Shown: piece by piece, positions 3,853 to 63,281 of the stretch
Numbering within the stretch: position 1 is the first letter of the stretch
Layout: each line of letters opens with the position of its first letter
Virus record (IMG/VR): IMGVR_UViG_3300017917_003388
Location: 96,001 to 160,000 of that record
Source of the DNA: a virus
Strand: one strand, 5' to 3'
DNA: 64,000 bases
Notes under the pieces: model-generated
The model's input: only the letters and a program-made list of their open reading frames with translations
Databases searched by the model: none
Told to the model about the DNA's origin: nothing
Made by a program: the position numbers and the translations under genes

Positions 3853-4232
3853 TATAATGTGACATTAGGGGATAATTTAACTTGACCTTCTAAAATTCTA
3901 GACACAAAACTACCAGATGAAATTTCTAAATCATATACTCCTGTATCAAAATCTAAAGCAGAAGAAGATACAGCTGATATATATATTCCTATTGAACCCG
4001 AAGTAGGTGGGGTAGTTCCATTTGAACCACTAAAATTAATTCCCGTTCCATCACTATCTAATGAACTACTCAAAGTAATATATACATCAGGAGAACCTAC
4101 GGATGGTCTAATTTGCATTTTACCACTATATCCTGTTAAATCTATAGGATTTGAATTTGAATCTTTATATTGGAGTTCTAAATTAAATGTTGCTCCTTGT
4201 TCTATAACAAATGAATATCTACCTGCTGACAT
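3852..4232 (-). CDS. Virion Ig-like adaptor protein (BppU-like)
   Basis: IEQGATF...PIDLTGY...MQIR...GVYDLEI...RILEG pattern typical of small tail/baseplate adaptors; translationally coupled to the fibre gene. Confidence 0.55.
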   Translation of the reverse strand: MSAGRYSFVIEQGATFNLELQYKDSNSNPIDLTGYSGKMQIRPSVGSPDVYITLSSSLDSDGTGINFSGSNGTTPPTSGSIGIYISAVSSSALDFDTGVYDLEISSGSFVSRILEGQVKLSPNVTL

Positions 4233-4236
4233 ATTT

Positions 4237-4920
4237 TTAGTCTCTAAATTCTTCGTATGTTTTTAAAATTTCTTCTACTATTTCATGACGATGGTTTTTC
4301 TTTAATGTAATTATTCTTACACCTTTGATTCTTTCTTCAAGACGAGGAAAAAATCCAATACCACTATCTTTTTTACCTTTGGGTAAATCTACTTGTGACA
4401 TATCTCCACAAAATACTATTTTACCACCTTTCCCTAAACGACCTAACATCATTTCAGTTTGACTATGGGTAATATTTTGACATTCATCAACTATAACAAA
4501 AGCATTAGGAAATGTTCTACCACGCATAAATGCAAATGGTACTATTTCAATTTGATTTTCCAACACCATTTTATCTATTTTTTCTTTATCATATAACATA
4601 TATAAATTAGCATATATGGGTGCTAACCAAGGATCCATTTTTTCTTTCAAATCACCAGGTAAAAATCCAATTTCTTCTTTAGATACAGTTGGACGTGTGA
4701 TTATTATTTTATCCATCTCTTTTTTAAATACTAAATCTAAAGCAATTTGACATGCAAGTAAAGTTTTTCCACTACCAGCCATTCCTTTAACTAAAGTTAC
4801 TGGATTGTCTAATATTATTTGCTTTGCATCTTTTTGCTCATCATTAAGAGATAATTTGAATTTAATGTCACCTTTGGGCTTTCTCTTTTCTTTAAAAATA
4901 TCTTCGTTATTAATAGACAT
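4237..4920 (-). CDS. phoH: PhoH-family ATPase
   Basis: GMAGSGKT Walker A, ITRP, GFLPGDLKEKMDPW, FMRGRTF, IVDECQN, GDMSQVDL and RHEIV motifs. Confidence 0.95.
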   Translation of the reverse strand: MSINNEDIFKEKRKPKGDIKFKLSLNDEQKDAKQIILDNPVTLVKGMAGSGKTLLACQIALDLVFKKEMDKIIITRPTVSKEEIGFLPGDLKEKMDPWLAPIYANLYMLYDKEKIDKMVLENQIEIVPFAFMRGRTFPNAFVIVDECQNITHSQTEMMLGRLGKGGKIVFCGDMSQVDLPKGKKDSGIGFFPRLEERIKGVRIITLKKNHRHEIVEEILKTYEEFRD

Positions 4921-4966
4921 AGTTGAATTGTTTTATTATAAATATTATAAATAAAAGGAAAATATT

Positions 4967-6310
4967 TTATTTATTCCATTCAAATTTTAAATTACCAGTA
5001 TTCCAAACTCTATAATACCCTTTATTTAACATTATTTCATATTCAGTTAATAATTTGTTTTCTCCTTGACTGACTAATATATCTTTTCTAAAATTAAATC
5101 TATTATATTTTATTTTAGATTTAAACCAATTATATCCTGGTGGAGTGGGTTTTAATTGAGTCATATTTAATTGATTATATAATTTACCATCACTCCAATC
5201 CCTATTAGCAAATGAAATTATTTTGTATGGGTTATATTTATTTATAAAATGTTTAAATAATTTAGATGCACCACCAATAACATTTGTATTTAATTTATTA
5301 CAAAATCTAATTAATTCATAATGTCCTTCTATATGAGTTTGTTTTAAATTTTTTCTAAGTTTACCAAAAGTCATAACTGATACTAATTCATCATCATAAT
5401 ATAACCCTAAACTATATTTACATATAGCATTACCCTGAAGATGATTTGTTTTTAAAAATAATACACTTTCTTTTTTGGTTATCTCTTTAATATTACATTT
5501 TCTGGCATATATTTTGTTTGGAGTTTTACTTAATTGGTTTATTAATATGGATTTAATAATATCATTATTGTATATCCAATCACTATCCCATATGTGAATT
5601 AATTTAATACCTAAATCATTACATTCTTTAGTTTTATTTAAATGATAATTTTTATCCTTATATAAATCTGAATGATAATATGTACCATTAAATTCTATAG
5701 CTATTTTTACATCTGGTAAATATATATCTAATTCTTTACCAGATAATATAATATTATCATTTAGAATAATGGTTTTTTTATATATATTTTTAATAAATTC
5801 TACTAGTTCTTGTTCTAGTTTAGAAACTCCTTTAAATAATCCCTTTTCGTTTTCTATTCGTTTTATAGCACTTATTCTCATTTGTTTCTTAGTTGTTTCA
5901 GAATGTATTAAATGTCCAGGTTTTACCCAATCCCAATGTCCTTTAATATATTCATTATGATATTGATTATTTTTTCCATTAGGAAGAATTTTTACATTTT
6001 CTCCACATCCACATTTACAAGTAGGAGCAACCCCATTAAGAAAATATTTTATTATATATTCTTCTTTAGATATATTTTTATGATTTTTAGTTATATGATA
6101 CATTAATTGTCTATTATTTATCATTTTTTGATTACATATTTTACATTCAAAATTAGAGTCTTGTTTTAAATAATCTTCATTTATTTTTTTAGACCTAAAT
6201 TCTCCATGTTTTTTGATATAATCTTTTGTCTTTAAACCATCATGTTTCCATTTAAAATGCATTGCTGCTTTTCTTGGAGTAATTTCTTCATTACATATTT
6301 TACATTTCAT
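4967..6310 (-). CDS. Hef-like free-standing homing endonuclease (zinc fingers plus Vsr/PD-(D/E)XK-like domain)
   Basis: CKIC..H..H fingers, CKCGCG, ELDIYLPDVKIAIEFNGTYYHS, LIHIWDSDW, NHLQG, ELIRFC, IGGASKL; sits directly after the capsid-gene terminator with its own promoter box. Confidence 0.75.
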   Translation of the reverse strand: MKCKICNEEITPRKAAMHFKWKHDGLKTKDYIKKHGEFRSKKINEDYLKQDSNFECKICNQKMINNRQLMYHITKNHKNISKEEYIIKYFLNGVAPTCKCGCGENVKILPNGKNNQYHNEYIKGHWDWVKPGHLIHSETTKKQMRISAIKRIENEKGLFKGVSKLEQELVEFIKNIYKKTIILNDNIILSGKELDIYLPDVKIAIEFNGTYYHSDLYKDKNYHLNKTKECNDLGIKLIHIWDSDWIYNNDIIKSILINQLSKTPNKIYARKCNIKEITKKESVLFLKTNHLQGNAICKYSLGLYYDDELVSVMTFGKLRKNLKQTHIEGHYELIRFCNKLNTNVIGGASKLFKHFINKYNPYKIISFANRDWSDGKLYNQLNMTQLKPTPPGYNWFKSKIKYNRFNFRKDILVSQGENKLLTEYEIMLNKGYYRVWNTGNLKFEWNK

Positions 6311-55347: not shown

Positions 55348-55528
55348 ATTTTAAAAATATTAAAAAAATATTAAATAAATTTTTTAAAAACTTAAATTAT
55401 ATATTTTAATAAAGTCTATGTTAAAAGATTTAAAGTTAATATAAATTTTTATTTTAATTAAAATATTAAAAATAAAAAAAGCCTCATATTTTATTATAAA
55501 TATAAGGCTTCTAATTGTATTATACTAA

Positions 55529-56047
55529 TTAAAATATTAAATATTGTTTCCAATCTTCTTTATTTTTATATACTCTACTTATGAAATAGAAAGGATTAGG
55601 TCTAAATGGTTTAATATTTAATTTCATACCTGCTTGTTCTGGTGTTTTGTCACCTTTCTTTAAATTACATGGAAAACAACATGTTACTAGATTTTCCCAT
55701 GTATTTAATCCTCCTTTAGATCTAGGATCTATGTGGTCTAAAGTTAGATTTTTAGTTGATCCACAATAAGCACATTTATTATCGTCTCGTTTAAATATAT
55801 TTTCTCTTGAAAGTACAATTTTTCTATGAGGAACATAAACATATTTAGTTAAACGAATAACTGAAGGTTTATGGTATTTGTTGATACTAGTATCTAAAGT
55901 TATTCCTGTATCTTCTATTATTTCTGCTTTACCTTTCCAAACTAATTTAAAAGCTTGTTTGAAAGTAGTAACATTTATTGGTAGAAAATCAGCATTTAAA
56001 ACTAATATCATTGAGTTTTTTTTATTATAACTCTTTAAATTTTTCAT
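55529..56047 (-). CDS. HNH endonuclease (McrA-like)
   Basis: LVLNADF.P, SRENIFKRD..CAYCG, LTLDHI.PRSKGG..WENLVTCC..CN.KK motifs. Confidence 0.9.
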   Translation of the reverse strand: MKNLKSYNKKNSMILVLNADFLPINVTTFKQAFKLVWKGKAEIIEDTGITLDTSINKYHKPSVIRLTKYVYVPHRKIVLSRENIFKRDDNKCAYCGSTKNLTLDHIDPRSKGGLNTWENLVTCCFPCNLKKGDKTPEQAGMKLNIKPFRPNPFYFISRVYKNKEDWKQYLIF

Positions 56048-56090
56048 AATTTCATATTTATATTAAAATATATTTATTATAATTATTTAG

Positions 56091-56163
56091 TACCCAATGT
56101 AGGATTCGAACCTACAAAAACTTGTTCCTAAGACAAGTGTGTCTTCCTTTCCACCAATTGGGT
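56091..56163 (-). tRNA. tRNA-Leu(TAG), short variable loop
   Basis: Acceptor ACCCAAT/ATTGGGT; anticodon arm CTTGT-CTTAGGA-ACAAG; T loop TTCGAAT. Confidence 0.85.
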
Positions 56164-56168
56164 ATTAG

Positions 56169-56240
56169 TACACCGTATAGGACTCGAACCTATATTAAAA
56201 GTTCCGTAGACTTCCGTTCTTCCAATTGAACTAACAGTGC
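56169..56240 (-). tRNA. tRNA-Arg(ACG)
   Basis: Anticodon arm GAAGT-CTACGGA-ACTTT; full cloverleaf. Confidence 0.9.
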
Positions 56241-56245
56241 ATGTG

Positions 56246-56321
56246 GGTATTATGTGGGATTCGAACCCACGACCTCTAGTGCCACAAACTAGCGCTCTTA
56301 TCCATCTGAGCTAATAACACC
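56246..56321 (-). tRNA. tRNA-His(GTG)
   Basis: Anticodon arm CTAGT-TTGTGGC-ACTAG; encoded G-1 and C73. Confidence 0.92.
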
Positions 56322-56326
56322 ATGTG

Positions 56327-56399
56327 TTCTCTTTTGAGGATTCGAACCTACAATTACCTGAGCCAAAATCAAGTGTCCTGCCAATTAGACGAAAAGAGA
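56327..56399 (-). tRNA. tRNA-Gln(TTG)
   Basis: Anticodon arm CTTGA-TTTTGGC-TCAGG; T1-A72; bulged T stem. Confidence 0.85.
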
Positions 56400-56405
56400 G
56401 TATAG

Positions 56406-56479
56406 AGGTAAAGGTAAGATTCGAACTTACGTAATTTTGTTTTGCAAACAAATGCCTAAACCACTCAAGCCACTTTACC
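56406..56479 (-). tRNA. tRNA-Cys(GCA)
   Basis: Anticodon arm TTTGT-TTGCAAA-ACAAA; U73. Confidence 0.9.
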
Positions 56480-56483
56480 ATTG

Positions 56484-56557
56484 AGCTTCATATCGGGATC
56501 GAACCAATTCTATTTCTCATTACAAGTGAGATGCACCACCATTTATGCGTATGAAGC
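56484..56557 (-). tRNA. tRNA-Thr(TGT), atypical A8
   Basis: Anticodon arm TCTCA-CTTGTAA-TGAGA; acceptor GCTTCAT/ATGAAGC. Confidence 0.85.
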
Positions 56558-56562
56558 TTATG

Positions 56563-56638
56563 CGGCTTATACGGGATTTGAACCCGTGATCTTCTGCGTG
56601 ACAGGCAGACGGGGACGACCTGACTCCCCTAATAAGCC
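56563..56638 (-). tRNA. tRNA-Asp(GTC)
   Basis: Anticodon arm TCTGC-CTGTCAC-GCAGA; G73. Confidence 0.92.
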
Positions 56639-56643
56639 AATTG

Positions 56644-56717
56644 AGCAAGTAGACGGGATCGAACCGACTCTATTCCTGATTGGAAGTCAGGTGCACCACC
56701 ATTTATGCGTTACTTGC
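56644..56717 (-). tRNA. tRNA-Gly(TCC), atypical A8
   Basis: Anticodon arm CCTGA-CTTCCAA-TCAGG; U73. Confidence 0.85.
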
Positions 56718-56725
56718 TTTTTTAG

Positions 56726-56798
56726 TACCCCCTGTAGGAATCGAACCTACGACATCTTGTATGTAAAACAAGCACTCTTCCAGCTGAGCTAAAGGGGC
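56726..56798 (-). tRNA. tRNA-Val(TAC)
   Basis: Anticodon arm CTTGT-TTTACAT-ACAAG. Confidence 0.9.
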
Positions 56799-56803
56799 AT
56801 AAG

Positions 56804-56879
56804 TAAGGTAAGTGGGATTTGAACCCACATGCTCTTCATCCCAAATGAAGCGAGATAAGCCTGATTCCTCTATTACCTT
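56804..56879 (-). tRNA. tRNA-Pro(TGG)
   Basis: Anticodon arm CTTCA-TTTGGGA-TGAAG. Confidence 0.9.
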
Positions 56880-56885
56880 ATAATG

Positions 56886-56958
56886 TGGATCTCCTCGGAA
56901 TCGAACCGAGATTTCTTGTTCTTCAGACAAGCACATTGACCAACTCTGTCAAAGATCC
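56886..56958 (-). tRNA. tRNA-Phe(GAA)
   Basis: Anticodon arm CTTGT-CTGAAGA-ACAAG. Confidence 0.9.
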
Positions 56959-56964
56959 ATATAG

Positions 56965-57051
56965 TGGAAGTGGAGGGATTCGAACCCACAAGTTAACCCC
57001 AAAGGGACTAGTTTTACAGACTAGCGAACACACCAATTGTTCAACACTTCC
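56965..57051 (-). tRNA. tRNA-Tyr(GTA)
   Basis: Anticodon arm CTAGT-CTGTAAA-ACTAG; long variable arm. Confidence 0.9.
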
Positions 57052-57058
57052 ATTTTTG

Positions 57059-57129
57059 CGGTTCCCAAAGGAATCGAACCTTTGTATAAAGATTAACAGT
57101 CTTTTGTTCTACCATTGAACTAGGGAACC
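57059..57129 (-). tRNA. tRNA-Asn(GTT)
   Basis: Anticodon arm AAAGA-CTGTTAA-TCTTT; G73. Confidence 0.9.
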
Positions 57130-57573
57130 ATTATTTCTTATCTTTTCATGTTCTTCTCTATGACAATTAGAACATAATAAATCGCATTTATCTACTTCTA
57201 TTTTCATTTTCTCTAAAGAATATGAATTCGAAGATATTGAAAAATCTTTTTGTTTTGGATCTTGATGATGAAATTCTAAAGCAGATAAACACTTATTATA
57301 CCCACATTTAACACATTGGTTTCCTTTATATTCAAGTAATTTAATTTTAGTTCTTCTTTTCCAATTAATTACATTATTCACATTTTGTTTTTTTCTTTCT
57401 TGTTTAGATAATGGTATTCGTTTTTCTTTTTTTTCTTTTTTTACTAACTTTAAATTATGTTTATTTATATAATACCCAACTGTTCCTTTTTGAATAGATA
57501 ATAAATTACATATATCTTTAATTTTAATATTTTGTTTACGTAAATTTATTATTTGTTCTTCTATATTTTTCAT
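57109..57573 (-). CDS. HNH homing endonuclease inserted in the tRNA array
   Basis: N-terminal HTH-like segment; KGNQCVKCGY..C..ALEFHH.DP..KC.LLCSNCHREEH; the 3' end overlaps tRNA-Asn. Confidence 0.85.
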   Translation of the reverse strand: MKNIEEQIINLRKQNIKIKDICNLLSIQKGTVGYYINKHNLKLVKKEKKEKRIPLSKQERKKQNVNNVINWKRRTKIKLLEYKGNQCVKCGYNKCLSALEFHHQDPKQKDFSISSNSYSLEKMKIEVDKCDLLCSNCHREEHEKIRNNGSLVQW

Positions 57574-57642
57574 TTTATTATAAATATATTAGAACAATTT
57601 TAAATTCGATTACTCCTTTTATTTCATCATTTCAAAGATCTG

Positions 57643-57717
57643 TGATCCTGGAGGGACTCGAACCCACGTTTCCTACATTAAAAGTGTAGTGCCTACAACC
57701 AACTCGGCCACAGAATC
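57643..57717 (-). tRNA. tRNA-Lys(TTT)
   Basis: Anticodon arm CTACA-CTTTTAA-TGTAG. Confidence 0.9.
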
Positions 57718-57723
57718 ATTATG

Positions 57724-57797
57724 TAGTCAAAGTAGGACTTGAACCTACGACCTCTTGCTTATCAGACAAGCGCTCTAACCAACTGAGCTATATGACT
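57724..57797 (-). tRNA. tRNA-Ile(GAT)
   Basis: Anticodon arm CTTGT-CTGATAA-GCAAG. Confidence 0.92.
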
Positions 57798-57845
57798 ATG
57801 TATGGGTTTTATTTTATGTAGAAACCCAAACTCGTAAACTACATT

Positions 57846-57918
57846 TGGTGGAGCATGTGGGAATCGAACCCAAATAAATTGTTTGCAAAACAATCCGCCT
57901 GCCTTCGGCATCACCCCC
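57846..57918 (-). tRNA. tRNA-Ala(TGC), irregular acceptor/T stems, encoded CCA
   Basis: Anticodon arm ATTGT-TTTGCAA-ACAAT; G3-U70 pair present. Confidence 0.75.
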
Positions 57919-57924
57919 ATATTG

Positions 57925-58009
57925 CGGAGAGTAAAGGATTCGAACCTTTGGACCAAATTAACGATCACAGTTTAGCAAACTGCTGCAATAACCACTCTGC
58001 CAACTCTCC
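57925..58009 (-). tRNA. tRNA-Ser(GCT)
   Basis: Anticodon arm GCAGT-TTGCTAA-ACTGT; long variable arm; G73. Confidence 0.9.
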
Positions 58010-58015
58010 ATTTTG

Positions 58016-58102
58016 CGGAAGCGAAGGGAATCGAACCCCCAAGTCAGGTTTCCCCGACCAACTGTTTTCAAGACAGCCCCCTCGTCCATTCGGACCACTT
58101 CC
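58016..58102 (-). tRNA. tRNA-Ser(TGA)
   Basis: Anticodon arm GCTGT-CTTGAAA-ACAGT; long variable arm. Confidence 0.9.
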
Positions 58103-58109
58103 ATTTTAG

Positions 58110-58179: not shown

Positions 58180-58210
58180 GTATTAAAAAATTTAACAATA
58201 AATTAAGAAC

Positions 58211-58243
58211 AAAAAAACCCGAACTTTTTTAGATTCGGGTTTA
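58211..58243 (-). terminator. Intrinsic terminator (putative attenuator) upstream of the 19-tRNA array
   Basis: Minus strand AAACCCGAAT-CTAAAAAA-GTTCGGGTTT-TTTT. Confidence 0.85.
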
Positions 58244-58272
58244 GTATAAAAATATAAATAAATTATATAATT

Positions 58273-58386
58273 TTAATAAACCGAATCAGGTGGATGAATA
58301 AACCACGTCCCATTATCGACTTTAATCGACGGTTGATAAGTCGCAAGACTATCAAAATTAAAGGTATATAGTTTATAGTTTTTCAT
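58273..58386 (-). CDS. 37-aa leader peptide of a putative tRNA-operon attenuator
   Basis: MKNYKLYTFNFDSLATYQPSIKVDNGTWFIHPPDSVY*; lies between a promoter and the terminator; the last codons GATTCGGTTTA are complementary to the terminator 5' arm. Confidence 0.7.
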   Translation of the reverse strand: MKNYKLYTFNFDSLATYQPSIKVDNGTWFIHPPDSVY

Positions 58387-58399
58387 CTGTTTTTCTTTT

Positions 58400-58434
58400 A
58401 TTATAAATATATGAAAAGGATTTTGAAATCCAAA
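58400..58434 (-). promoter_or_regulatory. Promoter for the leader and tRNA array
   Basis: TTTGGATTTC-N13-TATATTTATAAT, the same two-box layout as other promoters in the window. Confidence 0.7.
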
Positions 58435-58453
58435 TTCTTTTTCTTTTTTTTAG

Positions 58454-58617: not shown

Positions 58618-60225
58618 TTAAATCTCTATACTTTCAATTTCTTGAATAAGAGCTTTATAACCTTTACAATTAGCTTCAATTAGGTTAAAGATTTTATCTG
58701 ACCAACCCGCAATCTGTAATACATTAAGTGATTTATCAAAAACTGATTTTCCACTAGTTTGTTTTATATCAACACAAATTGTATTACAATGTGGGTTTAC
58801 TTTTTTAAATTCTTTAAACAATGTTTGGAACGAACCTAATCCAGCATCAGATGAATGATCCCATCCTCCACTACCTCCAGAACCTATAACCATGTCTGAA
58901 AATATTACTAGATTATCAACTCTGGTTTTTTCTTTAATACATCTATCTAAAAATATATAAAGTCCATTTTCAGTTCCTCCACCACATTTCACTCCTTCAT
59001 TAAATGAATTTTTGTTAAATTCAAGTAAACCTTTTTTTCTATCAATTGGTATTTGGATTAATTTATCACCAAATAAACCCATATATACATTTCTTTGAGA
59101 CCATGTTAACATGGAACCAAATAAATTACCAATCATAGCTGTTGTGGTTTTAGAAAAAGCAGATACTTTAGAACTTCCACCACCATCTCCTCTAACAGAA
59201 CCAGAATGGTCAATTAGTACAGCTGTTGTACCTTCAAGAGCTGGGATATTTTCAACAGAAAATTCTAATGCTTGTTCAAGAGCTGCTAATACTTTATCAA
59301 CTAATGTATTTGTAGATGTAGATTCAAAAGTAATAGTTTTAGATCTAGATGAACCAGTATGTTTTAGTTTTTCGATTTCTTCATATGCTGTAGCAAATCT
59401 AAATGGTAATAATCTAGAATTGAGAACTTTATCTTTATTAGTCAAATGTGAAATAGCTTTATCAACTTGATCAGGAGCGGTTTCAATTATATTTCTAAGA
59501 TTTCTCAATAGATTCATAATTGGTGCATCACCATCCAAAACTTCAGTAATAGCTGCTGCTTTTACTTCGGTTACATCTAAATTTTGTGATTTAGCAACTT
59601 GACCTGCTTTGGATAATTGCTTTTCCATAATTTTGGTAGAATATAATCCTTCCAATGATTCACCAGCAATTAATCTTTTAAAAGCTTCAAAGTTTTGTTT
59701 GGTAGGTTTAGGATGTACTAAGTTTACCAAATCAACAAGTGAAATCTCTTTTTTAGACATTTTATATTTGTCAATAAGATAAGGATCCATAGATTCTAGT
59801 TTTTTCTTAAATCCACGTCTCATAGCATTAGCTATTTTTTTATTACCTTTTGAAAAATAATAAGCTAAAATCTCTGACATATCATCAGGACGAACTGATA
59901 CTTTCTTGTAAAAACGAGAAGCATATTCTTTTCCTGACAAACGTGGTGCTAATTCACCGGCTAAAAGATGAGTTACAGATCTCATATTAGCATCATTTCT
60001 CAAATATATAGCTAACTTAGCTACAAAGTCTTCACTTACCTTATTTGCAGCATTTTTAATACGATTAACCACTTCGTTTTCTGATTCATAATATGAACCT
60101 TGTAAGAATGTAGTTAAACATGTTGCTACAAGTTCTTCTTTTTCACTTAATTGATAAGCTTTTTCCCCCATTTCATTTACTGTTGTTGGAACAGTAGGAG
60201 TTTTAGATTTATTGTACTTTGACAT
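58618..60225 (-). CDS. rsr: Ro60/TROVE-domain RNA-binding protein with a C-terminal vWA domain (Rsr orthologue)
   Basis: VNEMGEKAY, FVAKLAIYLR...MRS, RPDDMSEILAY, Y.IDKY, DLVNLVHPKP, LLRNLRNI, SRLLPFRF..AY; MIDAS DHSGS...FSDM; GWSD. Confidence 0.93.
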   Translation of the reverse strand: MSKYNKSKTPTVPTTVNEMGEKAYQLSEKEELVATCLTTFLQGSYYESENEVVNRIKNAANKVSEDFVAKLAIYLRNDANMRSVTHLLAGELAPRLSGKEYASRFYKKVSVRPDDMSEILAYYFSKGNKKIANAMRRGFKKKLESMDPYLIDKYKMSKKEISLVDLVNLVHPKPTKQNFEAFKRLIAGESLEGLYSTKIMEKQLSKAGQVAKSQNLDVTEVKAAAITEVLDGDAPIMNLLRNLRNIIETAPDQVDKAISHLTNKDKVLNSRLLPFRFATAYEEIEKLKHTGSSRSKTITFESTSTNTLVDKVLAALEQALEFSVENIPALEGTTAVLIDHSGSVRGDGGGSSKVSAFSKTTTAMIGNLFGSMLTWSQRNVYMGLFGDKLIQIPIDRKKGLLEFNKNSFNEGVKCGGGTENGLYIFLDRCIKEKTRVDNLVIFSDMVIGSGGSGGWDHSSDAGLGSFQTLFKEFKKVNPHCNTICVDIKQTSGKSVFDKSLNVLQIAGWSDKIFNLIEANCKGYKALIQEIESIEI

Positions 60226-60264: not shown

Positions 60265-60310
60265 AAAAAAGGGAGAAACATTAATTATTTATTTAACTAA
60301 TATTTCTCCC
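60265..60310 (-). terminator. Intrinsic terminator between the ncRNA array and the Ro60 start codon
   Basis: Minus strand GGGAGAAATATTAGTT-AAAT-AAATAATTAATGTTTCTCCC-TTTTTT. Confidence 0.75.
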
Positions 60311-60323
60311 AATTTAAAATTAA

Positions 60324-60466
60324 TTGATAGAGAATATTATAAAAGAGGTTTGTGTTTGACTATTTGGAAGATAGTTGCTTTTACCATTTAGCTAATTTTT
60401 CCAATGCGGAAAAATATTGGATTCGAACCAATAATACGAAGTAACTCTTTTAATTACTACTATCAA
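60324..60466 (-). ncRNA. Y-like RNA 1: scaffold plus circularly permuted tRNA-Gly(TCC) mimic
   Basis: Scaffold GTAGTAAT-TAAAAGAG-TTACTTCG ... CTCTTTTA; insert order is T arm, loop-closed acceptor, D arm, anticodon arm ACTAT-CTTCCAA-ATAGT. Confidence 0.75.
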
Positions 60467-60475
60467 ATATTTTTA

Positions 60476-60562
60476 AACAAGAGAAAAAATAGAATTGAGT
60501 GTTTGTTTGATTAATTGTCCAAAAATTAGTATACGAAGTAACTCAACTCATTACTACTTGTT
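60476..60562 (-). ncRNA. Y-like RNA 2: scaffold plus a lone anticodon-like stem-loop (TGG)
   Basis: GTAGTAAT-GAGTTGAG-TTACTTCG ... CTCAATTC (compensatory stem); insert TAATT-TTTGGAC-AATTA. Confidence 0.7.
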
Positions 60563-60573
60563 AAAATCTTAAA

Positions 60574-60704
60574 AAAAATAAGAGAAAAGATAAAAGAGTA
60601 TATTTGAATTATCGACAGGGATCGAACCTGCAACTCATTTCTGAAAAGGAAATTGTGCTACCAATTGCACTACGAAGTAACTCTTTTGATTACTACTTAT
60701 TTTT
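60574..60704 (-). ncRNA. Y-like RNA 3: scaffold replaces the acceptor stem of a tRNA mimic (TTT loop)
   Basis: Insert TA-GTGC-AATTGGTA-GCAC-A-ATTTC-CTTTTCA-GAAAT-GAGTT-GCAGG-TTCGATC-CCTGT. Confidence 0.75.
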
Positions 60705-60728
60705 ATTTTTATTAATTGAATATATAAA

Positions 60729-60794
60729 TAAAGAACGTTTTTTTCTTAATTTCTTGATATTGTAAATATAAGATTAAAGATTTTGAAATCCTAA
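60729..60794 (-). promoter_or_regulatory. Promoter plus boxA-like element driving Y-like RNAs 3, 2 and 1
   Basis: TTAGGATTTC..TATATTTACAA followed by CGTTCTTTA; near-duplicate of 61186-61252. Confidence 0.65.
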
Positions 60795-60832
60795 TTTTAA
60801 TATCTTTTTTTAAAAAAAAATTTATTAACTAG

Positions 60833-60907
60833 TACTCCCGACGGGGCTCGAACCCGCAATTTCTACCTTGAAAGGGTAGCGGCTTAAACCAATTTGCCCA
60901 CAGGAGC
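60833..60907 (-). tRNA. tRNA-Glu(TTC)
   Basis: Anticodon arm CTACC-CTTTCAA-GGTAG. Confidence 0.9.
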
Positions 60908-60910
60908 GTA

Positions 60911-61078
60911 AAATTTAAAGAGAAACAAATAAAAGAGTATTTTTCTAAAAACGCGTGTCTACCAATTCCACCACCCCATAATTTGTTATCAATTAAGTTA
61001 TGGGGGAAGGATTCGAACCTCCAATGTACGTGCTCCTAATGCAAGCGAAGTAACTCTTTTGATTACTACTTTAAATTT
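60911..61078 (-). ncRNA. Y-like RNA 4: scaffold plus circularly permuted tRNA-Leu(TAG) mimic
   Basis: Insert order: anticodon arm CTTGC-ATTAGGA-GCACG, T arm GGAGG-TTCGAAT-CCTTC, loop-closed acceptor CCCCATAA/TTATGGGG, Leu-type D arm GTGGAATTGGTAGACAC. Confidence 0.75.
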
Positions 61079-61082
61079 AAAG

Positions 61083-61158
61083 TTGCGGGGGTGAGACTCG
61101 AACTCACGTTATTTGGCTTATGAGACCAAGCTGGCAACCACCTCCAGACTACCCCACA
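61083..61158 (-). tRNA. tRNA with CAT anticodon (Met, or lysidine-modified Ile2)
   Basis: Anticodon arm TTGGT-CTCATAA-GCCAA; acceptor TGTGGGG/CCCCGCA. Confidence 0.82.
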
Positions 61159-61185
61159 ATTTTTATTTTAATAAATATTGTAATA

Positions 61186-61252: not shown

Positions 61253-61587
61253 TTTAAATTTAACTTTCTTTTATAATATACATATATATTTTGTCGATAT
61301 GAAGAATTTTATTTTTTAGTATTGGAGCGAGATACATATGTTATATCAAAGTTGGTATTTTGAAAAAACATATTAATAATTTGAGATATATAATTATATA
61401 TTGGTCGGGTTGAGAGGGGTGTATAAGATCTGAAAATATATCCAAGTCCCTGTCCCTGCCCCCAGCCCGCCGTATGGACCCCAGCATGCGTGGTAGCATA
61501 TACCCATACCCATACGCACGTATGCATATATGCACCAGAAGAGATATGTCTTGTTTTTTACTTCATTCCTTAAAATTTACATTCGAC

Positions 61588-61616
61588 AAAAATGGGGCGC
61601 CATTACTGGCGCCCCA
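61588..61616 (-). terminator. Strong terminator ending the small-gene (early) region
   Basis: Minus strand TGGGGCGCCA-GTAA-TGGCGCCCCA-TTTTT. Confidence 0.9.
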
Positions 61617-61641
61617 CCGAATTACCCCCAATTGATATTAC

Positions 61642-61815
61642 TCACCACAACCCCATGTTCCGCATTTTCCCAGGCATGATCATAATAATAATGGCTAAAC
61701 ATTCGCCACAACCAGCTACCCAGATAAAAAGATCAATATTAACAGTAACACAGGCATAAATGATGGCACTAACAAATGCAATCAAAATGATGAGGAGTAA
61801 ATCAAATGTTTTCAT
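61642..61815 (-). CDS. Small two-TM membrane protein (57 aa)
   Basis: Manual translation MKTFDLLLIILIAFVSAIIYACVTVNIDLFIWVAGCGECLAIIIMIMPGKMRNMGLW*, downstream of a repeated promoter. Confidence 0.6.
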   Translation of the reverse strand: MKTFDLLLIILIAFVSAIIYACVTVNIDLFIWVAGCGECLAIIIMIMPGKMRNMGLW

Positions 61816-61868
61816 GGGTTGTTTTTTTATTTCGTTGATGTGAATATAAAACGTACCAACTTGTAATC

Positions 61869-62105
61869 CTAGCGTCTACGTTTTTTATTACATGTACGCC
61901 CGATGTTTACTACCTTCCATCCATGATGGCTCGAATAGTGTTTCTTTTGACGGCGTTTGCTTTTACGCTTGGTTTTATAATGTGGTGGGCCTGGACACGG
62001 ACGAACAGTATATTCAGTATTAACTGAATTAAAATCCATAGTGGTGTTTGCTTCAACATTACCACCCATGATTGCGATCATAATGATCAAAATGTATTTT
62101 TTCAT
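61869..62105 (-). CDS. Small secreted basic protein
   Basis: Signal peptide (..VEA) and a Lys/Arg-rich C-terminus. Confidence 0.55.
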   Translation of the reverse strand: MKKYILIIMIAIMGGNVEANTTMDFNSVNTEYTVRPCPGPPHYKTKRKSKRRQKKHYSSHHGWKVVNIGRTCNKKRRR

Positions 62106-62161
62106 AACCGTTTTATTTGTTGATGTGAATATAAAACATACAAACGTGTAGTCCTAATGTG

Positions 62162-62413
62162 TTAATCTTCTACATCTGATAGATAAGTCTGAATAAATTC
62201 ACTACAATCCATCCCAAATTCATTATCCATTATTTGAATGAGTTCATCCCAATTTTTACAATCACGAATGCGTTTAACCACATCCATATGATTGTTATAT
62301 TGTTCATTAACTGTCATGTGTTCAGCAAAATATAGATAATTCGCTATCTCGGTTTCACTATTGGCAATTCTGGTTTTAACCAATTCCAATATCAATCGAT
62401 TTGTCTTGCTCAT
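62162..62413 (-). CDS. Hypothetical early protein (start revised to MSKTNR)
   Basis: The promoter copy at 62426-62464 lies inside the longer ORF call, so the ATG at 62413 is the likely start. Confidence 0.55.
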   Translation of the reverse strand: MSKTNRLILELVKTRIANSETEIANYLYFAEHMTVNEQYNNHMDVVKRIRDCKNWDELIQIMDNEFGMDCSEFIQTYLSDVED

Positions 62414-62583
62414 CGTTTTAAATTTGTTGAGATGAATATATGTGTTATTACTTGGTATGCCCAGTAAATCCACTAAACATCAATTTAACAATTATTGAAC
62501 AAACTAGTAGTTTGATTCCGAGTGATACTGCAAAAACCATTTGTCTTGTTTTTATTCGTTTTTATATAACTAAATATATAGAC

Positions 62584-62612
62584 AAAAATAGGGTAGGCCT
62601 AATGACCTACCC
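62584..62612 (-). terminator. Terminator after the AT-hook gene
   Basis: Minus strand TAGGGTAGGTC-ATTA-GGCCTACCCTA-TTTTT. Confidence 0.8.
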
Positions 62613-62642
62613 TAATTTAATCTCAACCGGGATTTAATTTTA

Positions 62643-63182
62643 TTATTCAGCTGAAGGCGCTTGTTCTTGTGTTTGAGTTGCAGCTGCTACCGGTTGTTCT
62701 GCTGGTGTTGGTGCTGGTGTTTCCACTTTTACTGCTTTGGGGCGACCACGTTTCACCAATCCTTCTGCACGTTTTGCTTCAAGCTCGGCAAGGCGTTTTT
62801 GACGTGCTGATTCGGTGTTTACAGGGCGACCACGTTTCAATTCACCGTTTGCACGCTTCGCTTCCATTTCAGCCAAACGCTTCTGACGTTCTGATTCGGT
62901 GTTTACAGGGCGACCACGTTTCAATTCACCGTTTGCACGTTTTGCTTCAAGCTCGGCAAGGTGTTTCTGACGTTCTGATTCAGGGTTCACAGGGCGTCCC
63001 AGTTGTTTTACTTCTTTCACTTCAGCTTGCGGAGCTGATTGTTGAGTTGCTGTTGCTACTTCTTCAGTAGTGGCAGCGGGGGTTGTTTCTGTAGTTGTTT
63101 CTGCAGTTGCAGTTTCAACAATTGGGTTTGCTGATTCAACAGTGGTTTCAGCGATGCGGGCAACTTTACCTGACTTTTTCAT
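62643..63182 (-). CDS. AT-hook repeat DNA-binding protein
   Basis: Four GRP cores (three KRGRP) separated by three ~28-aa helical repeats (VNTESERQKRLAEMEAKRANGEL). Confidence 0.75.
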   Translation of the reverse strand: MKKSGKVARIAETTVESANPIVETATAETTTETTPAATTEEVATATQQSAPQAEVKEVKQLGRPVNPESERQKHLAELEAKRANGELKRGRPVNTESERQKRLAEMEAKRANGELKRGRPVNTESARQKRLAELEAKRAEGLVKRGRPKAVKVETPAPTPAEQPVAAATQTQEQAPSAE

Positions 63183-63281
63183 GGTTTTGTTTTTGTTAAA
63201 GGGTTTGTATTGATTGTTGTTTTTCGTTTTTCTTGTTGATGTAAATATAAAACATGCAACCTTGTAATCCTAATTCTTGGG

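Follow-up and report, generated by a model that had tools for sequence, protein, structure and literature searches.

A putative leader-peptide transcription attenuator in front of the main tRNA array of a T4-like phage with a Flavobacteria-type host

Genomic context and organization of the tRNA unit

The locus belongs to a phage genome of approximately 25% G+C, in which the minus strand holds nearly all genes and which encodes a T4-type major capsid protein, a portal protein and a large terminase. The source record comprises 174,694 bp with direct terminal repeats, and the window, meaning the whole stretch of 64,000 nucleotides analyzed here, corresponds to bases 96001-160000 of that record; coordinates refer to the window unless stated otherwise. 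The phage is T4-like with a Flavobacteria-type (Bacteroidota-type) host. Among the cultured phages of the phage collection, Flavobacterium phage immuto is most closely related to it, with 37% amino acid identity over a 733-residue protein. Gene starts in this phage are A-rich and lack a Shine-Dalgarno sequence. The features of the locus are the following.

58618-60225, minus strand: Ro60/TROVE gene, upstream of the leader locus (Pfam, 1.1e-14)
58434-58400, minus strand: promoter of the leader and tRNA unit (TTTG at 58434-58431, TTCAAA at 58427-58422, TATATTTATAAT at 58411-58400)
58386-58273, minus strand: leader ORF of 37 codons plus stop, encoding the peptide quoted in the first-pass annotation
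58242-58215 (stem) and 58242-58208 (with U tract), minus strand: intrinsic terminator (10 bp, -11.9 kcal/mol, U7)
58179-58109, minus strand: degenerate tRNA-Trp(CCA), first gene past the terminator (ARAGORN at relaxed threshold; Rfam tRNA clan, 24.7 bits, below cut-off)
56090-58103, minus strand: 18 tRNA genes, namely Ser, Ser, Ala, Ile and Lys, an intervening HNH gene, then Asn through Leu (ARAGORN at default settings)
57573-57109, minus strand: HNH endonuclease gene splitting the array, with its own class II promoter at 57588
55529-56047, minus strand: second HNH endonuclease gene, after the array
55478-55511, minus strand: terminator closing the tRNA unit, after the second HNH gene (-15.3 kcal/mol)
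58433, 60791, 61249 and 63814, minus strand: promoter-family copies in the window (motif scan)

The order proposed in the first-pass annotation, that is, a promoter, a 37-codon ORF, an intrinsic terminator and then 19 tRNAs, is recovered in full, the number of 19 resulting from 18 default ARAGORN calls plus the tRNA-Trp found at the relaxed threshold, whose gene starts 36 nt beyond the terminator stem. Between the terminator and the first four tRNAs, no class I, class II or sigma-70-like match is present on the minus strand. A weak TAnnTTTT box (TAAATTTT) lies at 58194-58187, just upstream of tRNA-Trp, and a minor independent promoter at this box cannot be excluded. Further downstream, the array-splitting HNH gene overlaps tRNA-Asn (57058-57129) by 21 bases, and since this HNH gene has a class II promoter at 57588, transcription of the distal 13 tRNAs may be independent of the leader. 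The terminator that closes the unit contains a complete class II motif within its loop and stem (GAAGCCT-TATATTTATAATAAA-ATATGAGGCTT), so that termination and re-initiation signals are superimposed at this site.

The promoter of the unit can be read in two ways, either as the Bacteroidota-type TTTG-N19-TATATTTA or as TTCAAA-N16-TATAAT; the promoters of this phage match TTTG-N19-TAnnTTTA, the Bacteroidota-type consensus. Two promoter families occur in the genome. The class I motif (GGATTTCAAAATC-N8-TATATTTACAAT) has 22 minus-strand copies and no plus-strand copy over the whole genome, clustering near the genome ends at 0-19 kb and 156-172 kb. The class II motif (TATATTTATAATAAA) is found upstream of genes, spread over the rest of the genome, with 26 copies on the minus strand and 4 on the plus strand. 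The two families probably distinguish early from middle or late transcription. The promoter of the leader unites features of both, a class I variant being combined with an exact class II motif; its class I spacer is one base shorter than in the 22 consensus copies, and the 29-mer scan missed the leader copy. Where class I promoters drive tRNAs at other sites of the genome, they do so directly or past an ORF without an intervening terminator, and the terminator between promoter and main array is therefore special to the leader locus. In addition, the same non-coding start (CAATATCAAGAAATTAAGAAAAAAACGTTCTTT) follows three class I promoters on the minus strand, at genome positions 171071, 156791 (window 60791) and 3825, which suggests a repeated small RNA family.

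The region upstream of the leader locus contains further elements on the minus strand. Before the Ro60 gene, within 60265-61160, two tRNA-like elements are recognized as weak tRNAs by Rfam (60331-60401, 32.6 bits; 60612-60675, 41.2 bits), and ARAGORN makes no tRNA call for either of them. A strong terminator-like hairpin at 60310-60271 (-20.1 kcal/mol) lies 45 nt before the start of Ro60, and the gain in upstream pairing of its 5' arm is above average (-9.1 kcal/mol, ratio 0.45). The stretch 61500-63200 has a G+C content that is unusually high for this genome, including an ORF at 62643-63182 with 48% G+C and a GC3 of 0.26, as well as several small ORFs at 61500-62100 with GC3 values of 0.35-0.59. 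Searches of this stretch against Pfam, PHROG and Rfam all gave no match, and it could represent foreign DNA or structured RNA.

Terminator, antiterminator and predicted folding

The intrinsic terminator reported after the leader ORF in the first-pass annotation is present, and its 5' arm can engage in an alternative structure with the end of the ORF. Two folded elements precede or compete with the terminator.

58287-58232, minus strand: antiterminator hairpin (strand A paired with strand B)
58292-58388, minus strand: domain I, in which the start-codon region pairs with codons 27-32, enclosing a hairpin at 58355-58333 (prediction only)

Strand A (GATTCGGTTTA, 58287-58277) pairs with strand B (TAAACCCGAATC, 58243-58232) with one bulged C. 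Strand A corresponds to codons 34-37, with Asp34 (GAU) forming its first three bases and the stop codon following immediately, and strand B is the 5' arm of the terminator; the distance from the stop codon to the end of the U tract is ~65 nt. The complementarity between the last sense codons and the terminator 5' arm, which was the central claim of the earlier annotation, thus exists as described, is mutually exclusive with the terminator, and exceeds chance. The A:B pairing and its AU-rich spacer fold into a hairpin whose energy is -12.8 to -14.0 kcal/mol (z = -4.56; none of 200 shuffles as stable). Co-transcriptional folding had been suggested as a check, and under this model the A:B hairpin is the minimum free energy (MFE) structure of the nascent RNA until the 3' arm of the terminator has been made.

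The strength of the antiterminator was assessed as an energy gain, defined as the drop in folding energy when the terminator 5' arm, including the closing C, is added to the 100 nt upstream. Of ~20 canonical coding-strand terminators, this one has the strongest gain (-10.5 kcal/mol), and only one of the 42 terminators on both strands surpasses it. Control sequences rarely reach this value: 3 in 1000 dinucleotide shuffles, 1 in 1500 natural 100-mers and 1 in 600 100-mers matched for GC content. A cruder score, based on the duplex alone with a truncated arm, was unremarkable (p = 0.125) and was replaced by this fold-based measure. When the antiterminator and the terminator are compared on 58290-58215, they are isoenergetic (-14.0 versus -13.9 kcal/mol) and separated by a direct-path barrier of ~11.8 kcal/mol. 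The equilibrium ensemble favors the terminator (0.71 versus 0.07), so that a switch at this site depends on kinetics, which are only roughly estimated here.

The body of the ORF is also predicted to be structured. The fold of domain I has a z-score of -2.9, with 1 of 200 shuffles as stable, and the internal hairpin noted previously within the leader (58355-58333) is contained in the MFE structure. For the whole unit of ~190 nt, the z-score is -3.5. A 1:2 hairpin of the trp type was not found, strand A remaining unpaired in the nascent folds until strand B emerges and domain I excluding strand A. With regard to known RNA families, the T-box covariance model gives no hit at E values up to 10 on 58190-58452, and the YrlA model (Ro60-associated Y RNA) gives none in the same interval. 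The Rfam L20 leader and Thr leader models produced only sub-threshold matches driven by the terminator, and both were rejected.

The statistical significance of the antiterminator hairpin would be compatible with a role in processing or stability, in which the long hairpin and the terminator set a short mRNA apart from the tRNA precursor, as a site for a double-strand-specific RNase or a protective 3' hairpin might do, without any regulatory choice. As a matter of general knowledge, tRNA precursors need processing, and hairpins at mRNA 3' ends stabilize transcripts. We nevertheless find this explanation hardly credible, as it leaves unexplained both the mutually exclusive, isoenergetic structures and the codon match described below.

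The leader ORF and its codon content

When the interval 58398-58244 is dinucleotide-shuffled, 1.2% of the shuffles contain a closed ATG-initiated ORF of at least 37 codons, and the share among natural antisense 155-mers is 1.6%, so the open frame between promoter and terminator, found where it had been annotated, is seldom produced by chance. The start context of the leader scores 3.2 bits, compared with a mean of 3.3 bits for true starts, and is equaled by 3.5% of other ATGs. The codon usage is atypical for this phage, in agreement with the earlier remark on unusual G/C-ending codons: the GC3 of the leader is 0.30 versus 0.12 for the genome, only 0.4% of 37-codon windows taken from long genes score as low in synonymous usage, and 5 of its 37 codons are NCG codons, which are rare in the phage. 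The adjoining Ro60 and HNH genes have normal codon usage. Because some other early small ORFs are equally atypical, this property is only moderate evidence.

A more specific pattern emerges when the codons of the leader are compared with the tRNAs that follow it. The tRNA set of the phage comprises 25 tRNAs identified by default calling plus tRNA-Trp, and seven tRNAs lie outside the gated array: Glu UUC, three with the anticodon CAU, Ile UAU, Arg UCU and Leu UAA. The codons that correspond to these outside tRNAs (GAR, AUG, AUA, UUR and AGR) make up 21.5% of codons in long genes, with a mean of 7.7 per 36 codons; leader codons 2-37 contain none. The probability of such complete absence is 1.7e-4 analytically and 5e-4 in sliding windows of real genes, and shuffling of the ORF gives 4e-4 for open mononucleotide shuffles and 6e-3 for shuffles that preserve the base composition at each codon position. 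Among 491 ATG ORFs of at least 37 codons, counted in any frame of the genome, the leader is the only one without outside-array codons. Part of the signal is purely synonymous: Leu is encoded twice, each time by a CUN codon (22% of Leu usage), and Ile twice by an AUY codon (48% of Ile usage), with P ~0.011 for this component. The absence of Glu from the leader and the location of tRNA-Glu outside the unit, both pointed out previously, agree with this pattern, Glu UUC being one of the seven outside tRNAs; the codon-match test was itself framed after that remark and is post hoc.

The sampling of array tRNAs by the leader is less informative. Of the 19 array tRNAs, only those for Cys and Arg-CGN, which serve the two rarest classes, have no codon in the leader, so that 17 are sampled; neither the breadth (P = 0.08) nor the evenness (P = 0.11) of this sampling is significant. 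Similarly, the first-pass annotation correctly counted 17 of 20 amino acids in the peptide, but this breadth is not unusual by itself, as it is reached by 18% of 37-residue windows. The codon signal is thus the exclusion of non-array codons and not the sampling of 17 amino acids. The positions of rare codons within the sensing window of the leader are likewise no more than expected.

One further element of the peptide is read directly from the sequence.

58285-58293, minus strand: Pro-Pro-Asp (PPD), codons 32-34 of the leader

Motifs of the Pro-Pro-Asp type slow peptide-bond formation. Within this phage, a PP pair is present in 2.6% of 37-residue windows, and PPD is found a single time in 40,944 residues. 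A pause at PPD would hold the ribosome on strand A; this is an inference, and the motif itself is a post hoc observation.

No homologue of the leader peptide was found among 1.84 billion representative proteins, where the only matches were multi-repeat ones in very large proteins. Pattern scans of viral contigs with the exact terminator and with the degenerate motif GTWFIHPPD gave zero matches, and DNA searches of the phage collection returned tRNAs only. The relatives reached through Ro60, in viral and metagenome contigs, and through a 946-residue protein are too distant and do not carry the locus. In the absence of a homologue of either the ORF or the leader, the case for the locus rests on a single sequence, without evidence from conservation or covariation.

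The marked structure of the ~190-nt unit, of the ORF body and of the antiterminator, the poor codon usage of the leader and the proximity of the Ro60 gene and tRNA-like RNAs allow a reading without translation, in which the unit acts purely as RNA, either as a conditional terminator or as a stable small RNA, the switch between A:B and the terminator pairing is set by temperature, by a protein such as Ro60, or by an RNA, and the ORF is incidental. The infrequency of the open frame, the good start context and the codon exclusivity remain unexplained in the absence of translation, and no Rfam family matches the unit, T-box and YrlA included; we regard this reading as very unlikely.

A second alternative treats the leader as an ordinary small early gene that has a promoter to itself and ends in a leaky terminator; the tRNAs would be transcribed by constitutive read-through or from a weak unrecognized promoter, and the pairing and the codon pattern would be incidental. 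Class I promoters usually drive small ORFs of 37-313 codons, among them another ORF of 37 codons, and, beyond the shared codon atypicality and the lack of conservation evidence noted above, Flavobacterium phage immuto offers a comparable case (NC_055915.1, ~1290-1500). In immuto, the promoter TTTGGCTTTCCAAAAATAATTTCTTATATTTA, which resembles class I, drives a plain 51-codon ORF, separated by 23 nt from the three tRNAs (Ser, Glu and Gln) that follow, and the immuto tRNA locus has no evident terminator and no comparable leader. To account for the present locus, however, an ordinary gene would require three independent coincidences, namely the antiterminator (~0.001-0.003), the codon exclusivity (2e-4 to 6e-3) and the placement of strand A on the last codons, and it would have to encode a peptide with no homologue among the 1.84 billion representative proteins. 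We therefore consider an ordinary gene unlikely. Of the readings considered, ribosome-mediated attenuation alone explains jointly why the frame is open, where the antiterminator lies and how strong it is, and why non-array codons are excluded.

Proposed mechanism and relation to known systems

We propose that the main tRNA array of the phage is gated at this locus by a transcription attenuator of the ribosome-mediated (leader-peptide) type. This interpretation, already advanced in the first-pass annotation, gains support from the open ORF, the isoenergetic antiterminator located in the last four codons, the codon exclusivity, and the lack of any other predicted promoter before the first four tRNAs; we hold it to be probable, with the reservation that there are no expression data, no homologue and no experiment. 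The sequence elements, their predicted thermodynamics and the associated statistics have been established here, and the operation of the switch rests on predicted folding kinetics. Translation of the leader, coupling of transcription and translation in the host, the pause at PPD and the physiological trigger are inferred; to our knowledge, such coupling has not been established for Bacteroidota.

In the proposed mechanism, transcription would start at the 58434-58400 promoter and the 37-codon leader would be translated as it emerges. A fast lead ribosome would reach PPD and the stop codon, masking strand A while the polymerase makes strand B and the 3' arm. Given a ribosome footprint of ~30 nt, occupancy of the A site by Asp34 or by the stop codon would place the whole of strand A under the ribosome. 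With strand A masked, the terminator is predicted to form, and transcription would end before tRNA-Trp. If the ribosome is delayed within roughly the first 29 codons, or is never loaded, strand A would stay free and could pair with strand B as soon as the latter appears, allowing the polymerase to continue into the tRNA genes; the A:B hairpin, isoenergetic with the terminator, would be retained by the estimated barrier of ~12 kcal/mol. The earlier claim that stalling at almost any codon frees this strand is accordingly expected to hold for an A site at about codon 29 or earlier, but not for later codons. Without translation, read-through is predicted in place of super-attenuation, because no hairpin sequesters strand A.

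Rare codons are known to sharpen attenuation, as in the case of the CUA codons of the leu leader. As the codons of the present leader are all readable by the array and several are rare, or 'hungry', codons, the leader would report the decoding capacity for the codon set that the array serves. The attenuator may thus act as a negative feedback on tRNA supply, in which slow decoding yields more tRNA. Phage tRNAs have been linked to escape from tRNA-cleaving host defenses (PMC10264068, PMC11464382, PMC11555353); a response of this attenuator to tRNA damage in particular is an inference.

A similar design is found in Cellulophaga phage phi4:1 (KC821632.1), a cultured phage with a marine Bacteroidota host, Cellulophaga baltica. 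Of its three tRNA arrays, arrays 1 and 2 each lie behind a codon-matched leader and a terminator (4099-5222), and a repeated 18-mer lies upstream of both leaders.

KC821632.1 4117-4185: phi4:1 leader 1, which reads MKIQRLHLQELEQPIISGGTGV

Codons 4-14 of leader 1 are read by exactly the seven tRNAs located behind its terminator, namely Pro, Glu, Gln, His, Leu UAG, Leu UAA and Arg ACG (P = 2.4e-7). In leader 2, 23 of 26 codons match the array that follows (P = 3e-4). The two leaders spell Arg differently: leader 1 uses CGT, which accounts for 1 of 65 Arg codons in local genes, and its array has Arg ACG, whereas leader 2 uses AGA and its array has tRNA-Arg UCU. When nascent RNA is folded, the sequence CUAGGGG near the end of the leader 2 ORF is base-paired to the 5' arm of the terminator. 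In the phi4:1 record, leader 2 is annotated as the hypothetical protein gp075, starting from TTG, and leader 1 is unannotated. Because the phi4:1 leaders have no sequence similarity to the present locus, this analogue shows recurrence of the design and not homology. With regard to the proposed search for a leader with antiterminator complementarity in related phages, no relative carries the locus, immuto lacks the design, the tRNA region of record L002 contains no comparable leader, and the only analogue is the non-homologous one in phi4:1.

On a broader reading, the locus would be one member of a widespread, unpublished class of codon-matched leader attenuators that balance phage tRNA supply. 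The present leader would be a generalist form that reads the codon set of a whole near-complete array, with PPD parking the ribosome on the antiterminator and with a default state, in the absence of translation, that is ON, so that the array is switched on when host tRNAs are cleaved or depleted; the locus would be part of an island together with Ro60 and the tRNA-like RNAs. This broader reading is compatible with the evidence and in our judgment may equally well prove right or wrong.

Why phages carry tRNA genes is an old question, and little is known about the regulation of these genes. If the proposal is true, the phage senses translational capacity and tops up its tRNAs on demand, and trp-type attenuation, known for amino acid and resistance genes, extends to tRNA genes. 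Moreover, leader codons would then offer a readout of which tRNAs a phage treats as one functional set. The design is open to bench tests, and cultured phi4:1 shows the same design. The first-pass annotation was not aware of such attenuation for phage tRNA arrays, and full-text literature searches likewise found no description of leader-peptide attenuation of phage tRNA genes.

Several known systems share parts of this architecture. T-box leaders resemble the present locus in using conditional termination to report tRNA status, but they bind tRNA directly, whereas the present locus, which has no T-box match, would sense it through the ribosome. Ribosome-mediated attenuators that sense translation stress include bmrB-bmrCD (PMC4191407), the vmlR leader (PMC9226507) and the toiL uORF, which responds to several antibiotic classes (PMC12121999). 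In these systems, as proposed here, a slowed ribosome on a short leader ORF favors read-through, and there is no dedicated run of codons for one amino acid. They differ in that their output is drug resistance or a toxin-antitoxin system, they respond to antibiotics, and one of them is Rho-dependent; the present locus would yield tRNA, with a codon set fitted to the tRNAs under its control. The phi4:1 leaders are alike in having a repeated promoter, a codon-matched mini-ORF before a terminator and, in the case of leader 2, an antiterminator strand close to where the ORF ends. Each of them serves 7-11 tRNAs and spells only the corresponding amino acids, whereas the present leader covers a near-complete set that is defined by exclusion.

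The closest functional parallel is provided by the textbook leaders trpL, hisL, leuL, thrL, pheL and ilv, which have in common with the present locus a promoter-proximal short ORF, an intrinsic terminator and a mutually exclusive antiterminator, with the position of the ribosome deciding between the two structures. The distance from stop codon to U tract is also like that of the trp attenuator. In contrast to attenuators of amino acid operons, the present locus regulates tRNAs and not biosynthetic enzymes, and in place of a run of a single codon it has a broad codon set limited to codons decoded by the array. It differs from the trp type in having no 1:2 anti-antiterminator, so that an untranslated leader is predicted to give read-through, and from the enterobacterial attenuators in being encoded by a phage with a Bacteroidota-type host. 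As proposed, the locus works like a trp-type attenuator that meets most of the defining features of this type, lacks the anti-antiterminator, and has tRNA genes as its regulatory target.
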